Of a DNA stretch of 44,217 nucleotides, positions 15,500 through 44,217 are shown piece by piece. The stretch comes from Alphaproteobacteria bacterium (lineage in GTDB: Bacteria; Pseudomonadota; Alphaproteobacteria; Rs-D84): the NCBI GenBank assembly GCA_017450905.1, contig JAFSST010000026.1:1-44217 (forward strand), in the 5' to 3' direction. The position numbers and the translations under genes were made by a program. Within the stretch, counting starts at the first letter, position 1. Each line of letters begins with the position of its first letter. The notes beneath the pieces were generated by a model. It worked only from the letters and a program-made list of their open reading frames with translations. It did not search any database and was not told the origin of the DNA.

Positions 15500-16272
15500 A
15501 AAAAACAACAAATATAAAATTATTGGTGTTAATGGGGATTGCCGGCCTGGTTATGGGGTGTGGCAATAAAAAGAAACAAAATGCCCAAAGTGCCAATTTT
15601 TATGATTGTCTGACAAAGGAAAAGGTCGCCAATGGATACGATACGTTGGCCCGTGAAAATACCGATACGACAGTGGAATTAGAACAGATAGAAGATATTT
15701 ATTATGCTAATTCATTGGCCGGAAAAATTCAGTCTGAATTTGAAAAATCGGCATTGTCTGTTGTGCTGGATTGCAATAGAAAAATAAAATCTGTATTGAA
15801 GCGTAACAGTGTTGCGATGGCCGGGGATATTATCCGTTTGGATGACTGTTATTTTATTATGATGGATAACGAAGTGTTTTCTGATTGGTCCGGGGCCATG
15901 TGTGGTGATATCCAGGAATTAATCGAGAAAGCCGGTGTTTTTGGTGACAAGGAAGACTTTATAATAAAAAACGTATTTCAAAGCATTCAAAATGCCAAGT
16001 CGCGTTTGCAACAAATTAGAAAATCAATAGAATCTAAATACACCAAAAGTCGTGGTATCAGATTTATTGAATGGCCTGGAATGGGGAAATATCTGCGTAT
16101 AGAACAAGTTGACAGTATCAACCAGGTCCCAGAACCAACGAAATTATCGGCCAAGGATGCGGCAAAATTGGATTCACTGTGGAATGTTATATGTCACAAG
16201 CGTGAAATCGAAAAAAAGAAAGATTCGTTATTAAACGAGGCATGGATTGCGGCAAATGAAAAAGAATATTAA
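15496..16272 (+). CDS. Hypothetical lipoprotein (258 aa), ORFan D
   Basis: Signal peptide with lipobox MKKTTNIKLLVLMGIAGLVMGC. It is translationally coupled to ORFan C. The mature part contains several Cys, and no domain was recognised. Confidence 0.68.
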   Translation: MKKTTNIKLLVLMGIAGLVMGCGNKKKQNAQSANFYDCLTKEKVANGYDTLARENTDTTVELEQIEDIYYANSLAGKIQSEFEKSALSVVLDCNRKIKSVLKRNSVAMAGDIIRLDDCYFIMMDNEVFSDWSGAMCGDIQELIEKAGVFGDKEDFIIKNVFQSIQNAKSRLQQIRKSIESKYTKSRGIRFIEWPGMGKYLRIEQVDSINQVPEPTKLSAKDAAKLDSLWNVICHKREIEKKKDSLLNEAWIAANEKEY

Positions 16273-16319: not shown

Positions 16320-16349
16320 TTGACATTTTTTTTTTTTGGATATTATAGT
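16320..16349 (+). promoter_or_regulatory. Candidate promoter with a T12 homopolymer in the spacer
   Basis: TTGACA lies at 16320-16325, with a second TTGACA at 16308-16313. A T12 tract (16326-16337) follows, then TATTAT (16341-16346) and TATAGT (16344-16349), giving 15- or 18-nt spacers. Confidence 0.45.
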
Positions 16350-33994: not shown

Positions 33995-36238
33995 ATGGCA
34001 GAAAAGTTCAAGATTTTATCCGCAGGAAAAGACAGCAAGGGTTTGAATATATTCAAATCCAGTGCTTACGAGGAACACGAACAAACACCAATGGCACAAA
34101 CTTTTTGGGTTTTGCGTTGGACTGTTACGGTTTGGTTAATATGTGCGGTTGTGTTTTGCTTTTCATTTATATTTGAACATATCTGGCGGTATGGTTGGTC
34201 GCCGGCGACATTTACGTGGATACGTGTGTATCTGTCGAATTTGTTTCATACGTTTGGTTTTTCTGCGATTGCATCGGTCCCAGATTGGATTGTTCGTTGT
34301 TTTATGAATCCTGATTATGCGTGTATTGTTCCGCTGTTGCCGATAATTGCGTTTTTTATTTTGACCGATGAAACGCTGAAAAAGGAATTTAATCCGTATG
34401 GCAAGGACAAGTACGATAAAAAATCTTCACGTGTTGCGAACGAAGAAGATGTTAAAAAAATGGGCTTGTTTGATGGTTTTATGATGGTTTTGGGGTATTT
34501 CAAGAAAAAACCTTTGAAATTGCCTAAAACATTATCGGTTTTGTGTTTGGCACCTCCGGGAACCGGTAAAACCCAGGGCGTTGTATTGCCGACCATTTTT
34601 GAATGTGATGATGTTTCTATGATTATAAACGACCCTAAACCCGAAGTGGACAAGGCTTCCAGTGGTTATCGTGCAACCAAGGGACCGGTGTTTATTATGG
34701 ATTGGGGTGGTCAAGACGAACCAGACAAGGGAATTTATTATCCATCGTGGAATCCGTTGTCGCCGGGACATATCCCGTTCAGTGTCGAACAACGCGAATT
34801 GTATGTTGACTATATTTGCGATGTGTTGGTGCCTGATGCCGTGGGCAGCAGTGCCGACCCCCACTGGACACAATCTGGACGTGCCGGATTGGCGGGATTT
34901 ATTCAATTTATTGTTTCCAAAATTGAACGTGCCAAGGCCGATGATTATTTCTATTCGCGTTTGCAATCTGGGACATTTGATGCCCAAGATGCGGCGGTTT
35001 TATCGGACTATTATTTTTCAATGGTAAATGACCCAAATGCCTTTGCCGCCCAGGCATTGATTAAAAATGGTGAATTAAACGCAATGAATTATGTCCACGT
35101 TGGTTCGTGGGCGAATATACCATCGGCATGGTTGGGCAAAGAGGCATCTTTTTCTATGATGTTGGATTGGATTACCGAGGCACAAATCGCCGTTGCAAAT
35201 GATTTGGCGGAACGTCAAAAGCAGGGCGACCAGACCGTTATGATGGCGGACCCATTAAAAGATTGGTTGGATGCGGCGGTGAACGAGGCACGTGCGTTTT
35301 CTTATTCAAACCGTGCGGTGGCGGAACTTACCAAATTGGCAAATACGCCGTCAACGGAACGCGGTTCTATTTTGTCGACAATTTTGACGGGCTTGGCGAT
35401 ATTCAGAAACGCGGCTGTTCGGAACAGAACATCTCATTCGGATTTTCATTTTTCTGATATGCGTGGGATGATTGACCCGGCTGATGGCAAGATGAAACCA
35501 GTAACGGTTTATCTGTCTATTAATATGGTTGATGCCAAGGCATTAAATCCGATTACCGCGATATTTATTGAAACTATGTCGAATTTCTTGTTGGCAAATC
35601 CGCCGGAACACGTTGGACGCAGTGGCGAAAAAATGGGGCCGTATCCGGTGTTGTTCCTGTTGGACGAAATGCCGAAAATGCAAAAGTTGCAGGCTGTTAT
35701 CCAGGGGCCTGATGTTGGACGTGGTCAAAAAATTTCCTATTTGTTCATTGGTCAGGATTTACACCAAATAGCGGAAAAATACGGAAATGATGCGGCATCT
35801 ACGTTGATATCAACAACCGCGGCCAAGGTCGTTTTGCGACAAAATGATATTGACACGGCAAAACGTTTTGCGGAAATGATGCCACGTAAAATCACAATGA
35901 AAAAAGAAAAAGGTGCGGACGGCAAAGAGGTCGAAGTTCCAAAAGAAGAACCTTTGTTCAGTGAATATGATATTTTGAAGTTAAAAGATGCCAAGGATGA
36001 TAAACCGGGCGAGGTCCTTATTCTTTACGAGGGGTGGTATCATCGACCGATTAAGGGTGAATTGCGATTTGCTTATGCTGATCCAAAATTGTCCACTTAT
36101 ATTAAAATGGGTCGTTCATCGCCTTTGCCGGAATTTTTGGTACCGACACATCATGCGATATTGGAATATGCGGGAACGCCACGTTTTTATAATCCACAAA
36201 CCAAGGAATTAAAAGAACTGGTTCCGGAAAATAAATAA
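33995..36238 (+). CDS. Type IV secretion coupling protein-like ATPase (VirD4/TraG/TraD family)
   Basis: N-terminal TM helices (FWVLRWTVTVWLICAVVFCFSFIF; ACIVPLLPIIAFFILT), Walker A LCLAPPGTGKTQGVVLPT (nt 34550-34573) followed by IINDPKPE, Walker B PVLFLLDEMPKM, and the T4CP C-terminal motif YLFIGQDLHQIAEKYG...VVLRQND. Confidence 0.85.
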   Translation: MAEKFKILSAGKDSKGLNIFKSSAYEEHEQTPMAQTFWVLRWTVTVWLICAVVFCFSFIFEHIWRYGWSPATFTWIRVYLSNLFHTFGFSAIASVPDWIVRCFMNPDYACIVPLLPIIAFFILTDETLKKEFNPYGKDKYDKKSSRVANEEDVKKMGLFDGFMMVLGYFKKKPLKLPKTLSVLCLAPPGTGKTQGVVLPTIFECDDVSMIINDPKPEVDKASSGYRATKGPVFIMDWGGQDEPDKGIYYPSWNPLSPGHIPFSVEQRELYVDYICDVLVPDAVGSSADPHWTQSGRAGLAGFIQFIVSKIERAKADDYFYSRLQSGTFDAQDAAVLSDYYFSMVNDPNAFAAQALIKNGELNAMNYVHVGSWANIPSAWLGKEASFSMMLDWITEAQIAVANDLAERQKQGDQTVMMADPLKDWLDAAVNEARAFSYSNRAVAELTKLANTPSTERGSILSTILTGLAIFRNAAVRNRTSHSDFHFSDMRGMIDPADGKMKPVTVYLSINMVDAKALNPITAIFIETMSNFLLANPPEHVGRSGEKMGPYPVLFLLDEMPKMQKLQAVIQGPDVGRGQKISYLFIGQDLHQIAEKYGNDAASTLISTTAAKVVLRQNDIDTAKRFAEMMPRKITMKKEKGADGKEVEVPKEEPLFSEYDILKLKDAKDDKPGEVLILYEGWYHRPIKGELRFAYADPKLSTYIKMGRSSPLPEFLVPTHHAILEYAGTPRFYNPQTKELKELVPENK

Positions 36239-40992: not shown

Positions 40993-41070
40993 GATTTTCC
41001 ATCCTTTGTTTTTGTTAACGAAATCAGTATAGCAATAAAATTTATAAAGTAAAAGAGAAAGTTATCGTTT

Positions 41071-41757
41071 TTATCGAACAGGTGTAATACGAATTTCAAT
41101 CCGCCGATTTGTCAATCTGCCAATTTCATCCTGGGCGGCGATTGGGCGTGCGGCCCCACGTCCAACGATAAACAAACGCGATGTGTTTATTCCGTGTTGT
41201 GCAAAATACACACCAGCACGTGCGGCCATATCCAGTGATAAACTGTGTGCGGCGTTTGAATCACGCATTGCATCGGTATATCCGGCAATTTCGATAAAAG
41301 TAGCATCGTATTTTTTTAATATATCGGATATAATACCCAATGTTTCATCGCCGATTTCTGATATATCTGGGGCGTTTAATTCCATAATCGCATCACGTAC
41401 CAACAAAATGACAACATCAGTCCCTGCACGTTGCACAGACATCCCAGGTTTGCGTAATTCATCATATAATTTTGATTCTAAATCAGCCATATATTTAACA
41501 TACAGGTTTGAATCATTTGTATTTTTATCGCCATATTCCATTTTTGCCGATTGGGGCATAACCTGGGCAACTGTTCGACCGCCGGTTCCCTGGTAAACAG
41601 GTTTTTTGGCGATGCGTGCGGTATCAGACATATCTGTGAAACTGGCACCACGCAGATATGTTGGCCATGTTTCGCGGTCAGGACTGTGATATTGTGTGCA
41701 CGACACGAACGTGACCAATGTAAAAACAGAAAAAATAATTTTTGTTATTTTTATCAT
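41071..41757 (-). CDS. OmpA/MotB C-terminal-domain lipoprotein (peptidoglycan-binding)
   Basis: Lipobox TLVTFVSC. The OmpA-like core is IEIAGYTDAMRDSNAAHSLSLDMAARAGVYFAQHGINTSRLFIVGRGAARPIA...NRRIEIRI. The start overlaps the pilin-like gene stop (ATGA). Confidence 0.85.
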   Translation of the reverse strand: MIKITKIIFSVFTLVTFVSCTQYHSPDRETWPTYLRGASFTDMSDTARIAKKPVYQGTGGRTVAQVMPQSAKMEYGDKNTNDSNLYVKYMADLESKLYDELRKPGMSVQRAGTDVVILLVRDAIMELNAPDISEIGDETLGIISDILKKYDATFIEIAGYTDAMRDSNAAHSLSLDMAARAGVYFAQHGINTSRLFIVGRGAARPIAAQDEIGRLTNRRIEIRITPVR

Positions 41758-42209
41758 TCTATGACAAAAGATATTTCATTGTTGCCGGTTGAAAAACAAT
41801 CGGAATATCCGTTGAATCTGTATTTGTTTACGAACATTTCCGTTGCCCAATTTGGAACCGCATTGGCAAAAAATTCACATTCGCCACTGGTCAGCCCCAT
41901 CAGATTAATCACAAATGTGTTTTTTTCCGTGCCAACATCAATTGACCATGATGTTCCTATTGGCGGTTTGTCATTTGCCAATGCCCCCGCCTTGACCAGA
42001 TATTCAACCGATACCCCCGTATAATCATCACGCATTTCCATCAGTAATTTTGTGTTTTTTACAATTTCACGCAGTTGTGCGGATGCGATTGTATTCGACT
42101 GATTCCGGCGTATAGAGTTGTATATTGCGATTGCACTGGCGGTCATAACAGCGGTTATTGCCAACACACCAACAATTTCTATTAATGAACGACCTGATTC
42201 TGATTTCAT
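41754..42209 (-). CDS. Type IV pilin / pseudopilin-like protein (prepilin-type N-terminus)
   Basis: MKSESG|RSLIEIVGVLAITAVMTASAIAIY has a short basic leader ending in Gly, Glu at +5 and a hydrophobic alpha1 helix. A C-terminal Cys pair (SGEC...YSDC) is typical of the pilin D-region. Start set at ATG 42209; the ORF-track extension runs into dnaX. Confidence 0.7.
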   Translation of the reverse strand: MKSESGRSLIEIVGVLAITAVMTASAIAIYNSIRRNQSNTIASAQLREIVKNTKLLMEMRDDYTGVSVEYLVKAGALANDKPPIGTSWSIDVGTEKNTFVINLMGLTSGECEFFANAVPNWATEMFVNKYRFNGYSDCFSTGNNEISFVIE

Positions 42210-42228
42210 CTCTCTCTGCTCTTTGGTT

Positions 42229-43767
42229 TTATTGTTTGGATATGCCGACAATTTCGGCGTTTTCAAATAATGACATCGCATCAGCAACCATTGGGTCCGC
42301 AACAGTTTCAGATTTTGTTTGTTCGTTAACTGTTTGGTTTTGATGGGATGTTTCGATTTTCTTTAATACCCATTTTGCCCCGGTGTTATTGTTCAACCAC
42401 AAAACCAGACGTTGTTGAAAATCGTTATCGTTGCCACGGTCAAAATAACAAATAGTGTTATTTGCGATTTCTGATACTTCGATGTTTTTAGTGAAATATG
42501 AATACATCATCATTTCACGTGCTGATTGTAACGCATCGGCCAAATCAGTTGCTGTTTTGATTGTTGGTTTTTCAACCTTGGTCGTGTCAACCGCCGGTGT
42601 TGATACCGGTGTCGGTGTTTCGGTTTTTTGCTGTTTTAAAATTTCCGGCACAGATGGCATATCAGCAATGTGCATCAATCGCACGACCAACATATCAAAA
42701 CATTGTTTTTGGTTTGTTGATGCCTGCATTTCTGGGACGGCGGCAACCATAACCTGCCATATACGGGACAAAGTGTTTAATGTTACGTGTTTATTGATTT
42801 CGTTTATGCGTTCGCGTTGATCGGCCGTATACGGCGTATTTTGTGTCCCAGATATACGTAACGTTGGGTGCATACGTGTTGCCCAATGTGTCCATTCCAT
42901 CATATCGGTTAATAACATTGATAAATCGGCACCATTTGTATAAATCTCGTCTGCTTTGGCCAATGCGGATGCAACATTACCCGACAAAAGCGTTTGCATA
43001 AAATCAACCACAACCCCACGGTCCGCACGTTTTAACATATCCATAACGGCGGCTTCGTCCACATGGCCGCCAGTTTGTGCGATGGCCTGGTCCAACAAAG
43101 ATAACCCATCACGCACAGAACCGTCCGCCGCCCGTGCCAATAATTCATTTGCGGTATCGGATAATTCGACCTTTTCTTGTTCGGCAATCCACGCAAAATG
43201 TTTTTTTAACGTATCGACCGGAACGCGAACTAAATCAAAACGTTGGCAACGCGATAAAATAGTAACCGGAACCTTACGAATGTCGGTTGTTGCCAAAATA
43301 AAGATGACATGGGCAGGCGGTTCTTCTAATGTTTTAAGCAGTGCGTTAAATGCACTGGCGGATAACATGTGAACTTCGTCAATGATGTAAACCTTGTATC
43401 GACCATTTGTTGGGCGGTATTGTGTAGCGTCCAAAATTTCACGCATATTATCAACGCCGGTATGTGATGCCGCGTCAATTTCCAAAACGTCAATATGTTG
43501 CCCGGCGGCAATAGCACGACAGTTTTCACATACACCACATGGATTTGCAGTTGGACCGTCACCGGCGGTGCAATTCAATGCCTTGGCCAAAATACGTGCA
43601 GTACTGGTTTTCCCGGTTCCACGAATACCGGTGAATATATACGCATGTGCAATACGACCAGTATTAATAGCGGTGGTAAGTGTTTTAACCAAAACATCCT
43701 GTCCAATCAAGGATTTGAAATCTTGACTGCGATATTTGCGTGCCAGAACGGTGTAAGTGTTATCCAT
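42229..43767 (-). CDS. dnaX: DNA polymerase III subunit gamma/tau
   Basis: ARKYRSQDFKSLIGQD, Walker A GIRGTGKTS, zinc module CGVCENC, Walker B IIDEVHMLS, sensor SRCQRF. SD AAGGAAG lies upstream of ATG 43767. Confidence 0.95.
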   Translation of the reverse strand: MDNTYTVLARKYRSQDFKSLIGQDVLVKTLTTAINTGRIAHAYIFTGIRGTGKTSTARILAKALNCTAGDGPTANPCGVCENCRAIAAGQHIDVLEIDAASHTGVDNMREILDATQYRPTNGRYKVYIIDEVHMLSASAFNALLKTLEEPPAHVIFILATTDIRKVPVTILSRCQRFDLVRVPVDTLKKHFAWIAEQEKVELSDTANELLARAADGSVRDGLSLLDQAIAQTGGHVDEAAVMDMLKRADRGVVVDFMQTLLSGNVASALAKADEIYTNGADLSMLLTDMMEWTHWATRMHPTLRISGTQNTPYTADQRERINEINKHVTLNTLSRIWQVMVAAVPEMQASTNQKQCFDMLVVRLMHIADMPSVPEILKQQKTETPTPVSTPAVDTTKVEKPTIKTATDLADALQSAREMMMYSYFTKNIEVSEIANNTICYFDRGNDNDFQQRLVLWLNNNTGAKWVLKKIETSHQNQTVNEQTKSETVADPMVADAMSLFENAEIVGISKQ

Positions 43768-43863
43768 TTTAATCTTCCTTTGTCCCGTCCAGGATAGCAA
43801 ACATATATTAAAATTCAAGTGGGAAATGTGTGTGATGGGTGATTAGTGTGATGTGGTTCGTCA

Positions 43864-43880
43864 CCCCCCCCCACACACAA
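43864..43880. repeat. Homopolymeric C9 tract followed by a short CA dinucleotide run (ACACACAA)
   Basis: Read directly: C at 43864-43872, then ACACACAA. It lies in the divergent intergenic region between dnaX and the right-hand ORF. Confidence 0.95.
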
Positions 43881-43945
43881 ACCACTAGACACCAACCACA
43901 AAATATGATAAAATACCGGACAGGAAAAACAAGGAGAGGCCGAAC

Positions 43946-44017
43946 ATGAACCAAACGCCGGAAACCCGCAGAAATCTAGAGAGAGAGAGAGAGAGAGAAA
44001 TAACCCTTGCGGGTTAA
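43946..44017 (+). CDS. 23-codon reading frame with a strong SD that traverses the (GA)10 tract. It is probably the out-of-frame 5' end of the downstream gene.
   Basis: AAGGAGAGG lies at 43931-43939, 6 nt before ATG 43946. It translates as MNQTPETRRNLEREREREITLAG*. Removing one GA unit (or adding two) fuses it to the downstream frame. Confidence 0.4.
   Translation: MNQTPETRRNLEREREREITLAG
43979..43998. repeat. (GA)10 dinucleotide repeat
   Basis: Read directly: ten consecutive GA units, preceded by A. Confidence 0.97.
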
Positions 44018-44043
44018 TATCGCGGATATGTATTCCTGCGATA

Positions 44044-44217
44044 ATGTTGGTTGTTGGGACGATAGTTCCGTTTGAAGCGTTTTGTGCCGATTTAAATAAT
44101 CCCGAAATACAAAGATTAATAGCGGAAAAGCAACAGAAGATTGCGACCCTGGAAAAATGCGGTAAAAAGGTCAAGGGATTCAAGATAGCGGGTATATCCA
44201 CGATAGGCTTGACTGCG
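44044..44217 (+). CDS. Partial ORF (runs off the window) encoding a secreted or membrane protein. The true start is probably upstream at 43946 in a different repeat phase.
   Basis: Frame 1 is open from 43912 to the window end. It reads ...LISRICIPAIMLVVGTIVPFEAFCADLNNPEIQRLIAEKQQKIATLEKCGKKVKGFKIAGISTIGLTA, a signal-peptide-like hydrophobic stretch followed by a charged helix. The first in-frame ATG (44044) has no SD. This ORF is absent from the ORF track. Confidence 0.4.
   Translation, partial: MLVVGTIVPFEAFCADLNNPEIQRLIAEKQQKIATLEKCGKKVKGFKIAGISTIGLTA

Follow-up and report, generated by a model that had tools for sequence, protein, structure and literature searches.

Repeat-driven contingency loci are textbook material for mucosal pathogens such as Neisseria, Haemophilus, Helicobacter and Campylobacter. 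The opa genes of Neisseria encode a multi-copy exported family and have CTCTT pentamers repeated in the part that codes for the signal peptide; the copies are independently in or out of frame and recombine. The variable surface lipoprotein families of Mycoplasma have a conserved 5' expression region, and their repeats are usually located in the promoter, where they control transcription. In H. pylori, the oipA/hopH, sabA and babA genes carry CT dinucleotide repeats in the signal-peptide coding region (PMC10564699). An oipA gene is read as ON when FWLHA, the motif at the conserved end of its signal peptide, is in frame (PMC10564699). Literature searches returned this H. pylori precedent, zero reports on the protein family or lineage considered here and no report of repeat-driven contingency loci in uncultured rumen Alphaproteobacteria.

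The DNA analysed (44 217 nt, hereafter the window) is an entire metagenome contig, ena:ERZ27256819:k141_255466. The initial annotation had described, at its right end, a (GA)10 tract lying between a start codon and the signal-peptide open reading frame (ORF) of a candidate surface gene, and had read it as a contingency locus in the OFF phase. On the sequence comparisons given below, the window very probably carries the OFF allele of a slippage-driven contingency locus for an exported protein. The features of the region are as follows.

42229-43767, minus strand: dnaX
43768-44217: region between dnaX and a divergently oriented plus-strand gene, together with the 5' end of that gene
43886-43914, plus strand: predicted sigma-70 promoter, with -35 TAGACA (43886-91), a 17-nt spacer and a TG-extended -10 TAAAAT (43909-14)
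43931-43939, plus strand: ribosome-binding site AAGGAGAGG, separated from the start codon by the 6-nt spacer ccgaac
43946-43948, plus strand: ATG start codon, in frame with the whole protein in L005, L020, L006 and L011-13
43946-44017, plus strand: 23-codon truncated frame of the (GA)10 allele, the OFF state, ending at TAA 44015-17
43979-43998, plus strand: (GA)10 tract, starting 11 codons past ATG 43946 (codons 12-18 of the preprotein)
43999-44043, plus strand: frame-1 coding segment from the tract to the internal ATG, NNPCGLISRICIPAI, covering the last residues of the charged N-terminal part and the first of the hydrophobic core of the predicted signal peptide
44001-44003, plus strand: TAA for the second out-of-frame state, at which the (GA)11 products of L018 and L021 end after 19 codons (…EREK, then stop)
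44044-44217, plus strand, continuing past the window end: gene body, with the rest of the predicted signal peptide MLVVGTIVPFEAFC, a helix and the start of a conserved hydrophobic segment

The elements reported in the initial annotation were found again in the sequence. The ribosome-binding site is placed 6 nt before ATG 43946, and the frame opened by this codon, MNQTPETRRNLEREREREITLAG, crosses the tract and stops after 23 codons. Frame 1 has no stop codon from 43912 up to the window end (…NNPCGLISRICIPAIMLVVGTIVPFEAFCADLNN…, also given as …NNPCGLISRICIPAIMLVVGTIVPFEAFCADLNNPEIQRLIAEKQQ…). Its first ATG is at 44044 and is preceded by gtattcctgcgata, which contains no purine-rich ribosome-binding site. 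The arithmetic by which loss of one unit or gain of two would fuse the two frames also holds; the in-frame allele found in nature has five additional units, i.e. (GA)15.

The promoter is predicted by consensus match alone (10 of 12 consensus positions plus the TG motif). It reads TGGACA-17-TAAAAT in L006, an orthologue with 73% identity, and is unchanged in L013, L022 and L023. Purine-rich sites (acaggagag or agagagg) are present 5' of the start in all related loci. An Rfam scan of positions 41000-44217 (E ≤ 1) gave zero matches, with no SRP RNA or riboswitch upstream of dnaX. Fourteen nucleotides 5' of the predicted -35 lies a C9 tract (43864-43872), the longest G/C homopolymer of the window. 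Its length is ten in L018 and nine in the other eight assemblies having the region, and it may be a second mutable tract, possibly acting on transcription. The longest homopolymer of any kind in the window is a T12 run at 16326-16337, between ORFs ending at 16272 (plus) and 16485 (minus). Elsewhere in the window, the gene 3' of dnaX (41754-42209, minus; L001 2009-2464) encodes a 151-aa protein that has zero matches in Pfam and whose hydrophobic N-terminus (…SLIEIVGVLAITAVMTASAIAIYNS…) resembles that of type IV pilins, and a VirD4/TraG-type coupling protein is encoded at 33995-36238.

Tandem Repeats Finder called the tract as (AG)10.5 at 43978-43998. All other dinucleotide runs in the 44 kb window have at most 4 units, the longest run in each of 200 first-order Markov simulations had 4-7 units, and the expected count of a (GA)10 in the window is about 7e-12. 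The tract is thus far above chance and within the length range known to slip. It is flanked by a perfect 8-bp inverted repeat, AACCCGCA / TGCGGGTT (43963-43970 and 44008-44015). This repeat was rejected as a structural element (z = -1.7; 11 of 200 shuffles folded equally well).

The complete gene was recovered by an exact look-up of the DnaX protein, which gave three more contigs. One of them, L003, contains the whole downstream gene, with 387 codons from the ATG equivalent to 44044 and no early end beyond the window. A homology search with the 387-aa product then returned P0001, which is 100% identical to it but is 423 aa long, with the N-terminus MNQTPETRRNLERERERERERNNPCGLISRICIPAIMLVVG…. 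The DNA of P0001 (L005) is the window sequence save for (GA)15. The contigs of all members of the 90% cluster of P0001 were collected, giving eleven assemblies of the gene, window included; some ERZ assemblies may share biosamples, so that independent samples are possibly fewer than 11. A scan of JGI metagenomes gave 0 matches with a specific leader pattern and, with a looser one, a single unrelated chance match (L024). Among GTDB species representatives, the scan retained MAG RUG12172 alone, with two paralogous loci. The alleles of the eleven assemblies are as follows.

(GA)10, in the window, L002, L003, L004 and L019: OFF, 23 codons
(GA)11, in L018 and L021: OFF in the other frame, 19 codons, TAA directly after the tract
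(GA)13, in L016 and L017: OFF, 25 codons
(GA)15, in L005 and L020: ON, 423 aa

The tract alleles therefore cover all three frames, and 9 of the 11 are OFF. The single-step ON neighbours, with 9 and 12 units, are absent from the 11 assemblies. In the (GA)15 alleles, the product from ATG 43946 is uninterrupted, MNQTPETRRNL(ER)5NNPCGLISRIC… (P0001 and P0054, called as 423 aa). The gene bodies differ at 0-7 of 1164 nt. The flanks (95 nt on the 5' side and 215 nt on the 3' side) are identical in 10 of the 11 assemblies apart from one 5-SNP patch; the 5' flank of L019 differs at 43 of 95 positions because it belongs to another upstream region. Length differences consist of whole GA units and are confined to the repeat. 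Repeat-number polymorphism, with ON and OFF alleles of an otherwise intact gene, is thus observed among near-identical genomes. Tracts of 10, 11 and 15 units were all found with MLVVG and with MLFIG alleles, and with both states of nt 916. This independence from the SNP haplotype indicates that the tract is much more mutable than its surroundings, and suggests that it changed repeatedly or was reshuffled through recombination. The MLFIG form results from five SNPs in 28 nt (44049-44076) in L004, L020 and L021, which change MLVVG to MLFIG and add silent changes. The same patch is found in the paralogue sequence of L025 and L007, and looks like a short gene conversion from another family member. 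In rumen metagenomes, the tract could serve directly to tell strains apart and to follow their population dynamics.

Such length differences could be produced by PCR or sequencing stutter, or by assemblers mixing paralogous copies. Library PCR does stutter at dinucleotide repeats, the 5' part of the gene is common to several loci and contigs often break within it; the window itself ends at 44217, an end point shared with L002 and L004. A technical origin is nevertheless very improbable. The differences reach 5 units as consensus calls, and they recur in two assembly pipelines (MEGAHIT k141 contigs and METAG scaffolds). L003 and L005 share the dnaX context and are identical except for (GA)10 versus (GA)15. 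The SNPs that distinguish window-type leaders (ATGAAC…AAATCTAGA) are at most 33 nt from the tract and the allele patch is about 50-77 nt away, so that single reads or k-mers span each leader-tract-patch haplotype. For this reason, the tract alleles themselves appear secure.

A second explanation is an ordinary inactivating frameshift in a gene that is being lost, the repeat being incidental. The gene is indeed out of frame in most of its alleles and in all long-tract paralogues, a preponderance of OFF that would also fit relaxed selection. Against decay, every OFF allele keeps an intact 387-codon body, with no extra stops or indels and 0-7 substitutions, and identical DNA with an in-frame tract exists. 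The length changes are limited to the repeat and come in whole units, and the same arrangement is found at several loci. A decaying pseudogene is judged very improbable.

Relatives with short tracts were informative on whether the tract is coding. L006, with (GA)2, 73% identity and the same lipid A acyltransferase gene downstream, has the in-frame leader MHQTPETYGNLESKPCGLISRIC… (also given as MHQTPETYGNLESKPCGLISRICISAIM…). L011-13, with (GA)3 and a GTG start, have the in-frame leader VKQTPEARRKSRESNKPCGLISRIC… (also given as VKQTPEARRKSRESNKPCGLISRICVSAIM…), and L015 is like them in its (GA)3 and GTG start. In-frame leaders of the same type are also present in P0016 and P0019, which are more distant. 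Over the 45 nt from the tract to ATG 44044, eight related leaders show 10 variable columns. In the frame of the gene body, 8 of these fall on codon position 3 and 2 on position 1, with none on position 2 (binomial probability of at least 8 of 10 at position 3, about 0.003). This third-position variation before ATG 44044 implies that the stretch is translated and that the tract is coding. Between the stop at 43909-11 and ATG 44044, the body frame contains no start codon; translation therefore needs ATG 43946 and a unit number divisible by 3. The fused N-terminus is a conventional predicted signal peptide: its charged part contains arginines, its hydrophobic core (ICIPAIMLVVGTIVPF) is about 16 residues long, and small residues precede ADLNN. 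Cleavage is predicted near 44085/44086 from the residue pattern alone. On this evidence from related sequences, ATG 43946 is the true start of the gene.

The gene might instead begin at ATG 44044 (387 aa), with the tract in a 5' leader or small upstream frame that would tune expression at most, via coupling or reinitiation. Gene callers picked this codon in L003, L016-19 and L021, its Met is conserved in close paralogues, and the upstream frame stops 26 nt short of it, so that some reinitiation is conceivable. ATG 44044 has no ribosome-binding site, however, and its product, MLVVGTIVPF…, would have no charged N-terminal part. The Met is absent at this position in more distant homologues (P0012). 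The codon-position pattern of the preceding 45 nt, and the reading through from the upstream start in (GA)15 alleles and short-tract relatives, also speak against an internal start, which is judged quite improbable.

Another candidate start, giving MIKYRTGK… N-termini (P0009-P0013; MIKYRTGKTGEFEHETNAGNPQK… in P0009, P0010, P0011 and P0013, with L022 689- and L023 1146-), was rejected. Its ATG is inside the -10 element (tATGATAAAAT), has no ribosome-binding site and overlaps the predicted promoter, and the corresponding window frame ends at TGA 43947-49. These N-termini are probably spurious extensions, made possible by the open frame that results from an OFF-phase tract. On the window contig, the public call is a 133-aa antisense ORF (43815-44216, minus; L001 2-403) lying over the 5' end of the real gene, an annotation artefact due to the gene being frameshifted and cut. 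Public gene calls for the family are thus systematically wrong, by truncation to the internal Met, by extension to the promoter ATG or, on the window contig, by an antisense ORF. Gene calling that takes the frame shifts at the tract into account would put this right.

The product of the gene belongs to no family in Pfam or NCBIfam. An AlphaFold model based on 30 homologues (mean pLDDT 74) consists of N-terminal helices, a long helix and cysteine-rich β domains with pLDDT above 90. The signal peptide and the highly conserved segment KGFKIAGISTIGLTAVGVAGN are modelled with low confidence. Foldseek gave no match in the PDB with E below 0.38, though the C-terminal model is confident. With its plausible predicted Sec signal peptide, Thr/Pro-rich linkers and cysteine-rich β domains, the ON product can reasonably be considered as exported. 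The initial description as a surface gene was retained in part. The predicted signal peptide, the cysteine-rich domains and the diversified family agree with it; the surface localisation stays a prediction for a protein with no homologue of known location.

The following switch is proposed. Transcription would probably begin just 3' of TAGACA-17-TAAAAT, and ribosomes would initiate at ATG 43946 behind the strong ribosome-binding site. With a number of GA units divisible by 3 (9, 12, 15…), the tract would add a series of Glu-Arg pairs to the charged region of the signal peptide, and translation would continue to a complete preprotein of 417-423 aa. With other numbers, translation would end at a TAA 3 or 17 nt past the tract, and the (GA)10 of the window would give the 23-residue peptide alone. 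Slipped-strand mispairing during replication would add or remove units, so that ON and OFF cells would be mixed in the population.

The 10-, 11-, 13- and 15-unit alleles, the in-frame (GA)15, the short-tract relatives and the codon-position signature all support the initial reading of an OFF-phase contingency locus. A comparison of tract length and frame between orthologous loci, proposed at that time, favours the switch as well: the tract is variable, the upstream start is kept in orthologues and the downstream frame is long. The sequences themselves show the anatomy of the locus, coding constraint across the tract, four length alleles in all three frames on near-identical DNA and an intact in-frame allele; the mutational mechanism and its rate, the use of the promoter, the export and surface exposure of the product and the selective reason for switching are inferred. 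The lineage evidently faces fluctuating, probably antagonistic, selection on this exported protein family. The agent of this selection might, speculatively, be host immunity, phage or grazing by protists.

Related loci carry tracts of their own. At an rpsB-tsf-[103-aa ORF]-gene-PFOR locus, an out-of-frame (GA)12 was found in four independent assemblies and in MAG RUG12172 (L007-10, L014). The length of this tsf-PFOR paralogue is the same in 4 of 4 independent assemblies; long tracts are thus not always visibly variable. L022 has (GA)12 and L023 (GA)9, both out of frame. L025 has an out-of-frame (GA)13; its leader and N-terminal module are those of the family, and they precede a Gln-rich C-terminal region of unrelated sequence. 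The same gene body was also found behind three upstream contexts: dnaX, a clpB-side 246-aa gene and a 101-aa ORF (window near 43840 and 44217; L016, L018, L019 and L025). Recombination between copies would fit these three contexts, but the shared module is also just where assemblers tend to misjoin, and the contexts are taken as provisional. Several contigs, window included, end within the shared N-terminal module. As the contigs are short and the 5' cassette is shared, assemblers may have wrongly joined some upstream regions, tracts and gene bodies.

Directly 5' of some family members lies an ORF of 101-103 aa (L007 2568-2879; L019 94-399; L025 2067-2372). It corresponds to a stand-alone N-terminal module, with a signal peptide, a helix and a Gly/Ala-rich hydrophobic segment (IIGGVGVAATGTAAIVQG). 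Assignment to alpha-xenorhabdolysin/ClyA-type toxins was rejected: the 103-aa ORF of L007 (2568-2879) scored 24.8 bits, for a cut-off of 125, with the NCBIfam model of alpha-xenorhabdolysin subunit A, and P0001 had zero matches with the model of this family. The hydrophobic module might form a hairpin that inserts into membranes, as in alpha-pore-forming toxins. If so, the loci would encode phase-variable membrane-active effectors and not passive surface antigens.

A broader possibility, held only tentatively and rather doubtful at present, is multi-locus variation in these uncultured rumen Alphaproteobacteria. A 5' cassette, made of a promoter or operon junction, the leader, the GA tract, the signal peptide and the helix with its Gly/Ala-rich hydrophobic module, would recombine onto unrelated C-terminal domains and beside different neighbours, each copy being independently phase-variable. 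The cassette was found beside dnaX, beside a clpB-side gene and at the tsf-PFOR locus.

In mechanism, the switch proposed here is closest to that of the H. pylori genes oipA, sabA and babA, which are controlled by CT repeats. As in the H. pylori CT/GA genes, the dinucleotide repeat is located a few codons past the start, within the signal-peptide coding region, the number of units fixes the frame, and ON and OFF alleles coexist among strains. An in-frame PCGLISRIC…AIM motif is the ON marker here, as FWLHA is for oipA. Several differences were noted. The repeat encodes Glu-Arg in the charged part of the signal peptide, whereas that of H. pylori encodes Leu/Ser in the hydrophobic core. The product, for which Pfam, NCBIfam and the PDB gave no match, is not a Hop-type β-barrel, and it comes from an uncultured alphaproteobacterium of the rumen and not from an epsilonproteobacterial pathogen. 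Unlike in H. pylori, switching is here proposed from sequence comparison. Membership of the Helicobacter Hop/Hor family was rejected for want of a Pfam or NCBIfam match and of a PDB fold match below E 0.38, which restricts the resemblance to the mechanism.

The organization of the family recalls two other systems. As with Neisseria opa, the exported family is multi-copy, each copy has its own coding leader repeat and is independently in or out of frame, and the copies may recombine; the repeat is a dinucleotide and not a pentamer, and the protein family is unrelated. The conserved promoter/leader/N-terminal cassette, followed by divergent C-terminal regions and controlled by simple repeats, is similar to that of the Mycoplasma families, but the tract is coding here and the product has no lipobox. 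The mechanism is a textbook one; the lineage, the protein family and the architecture of the shared cassette are new.
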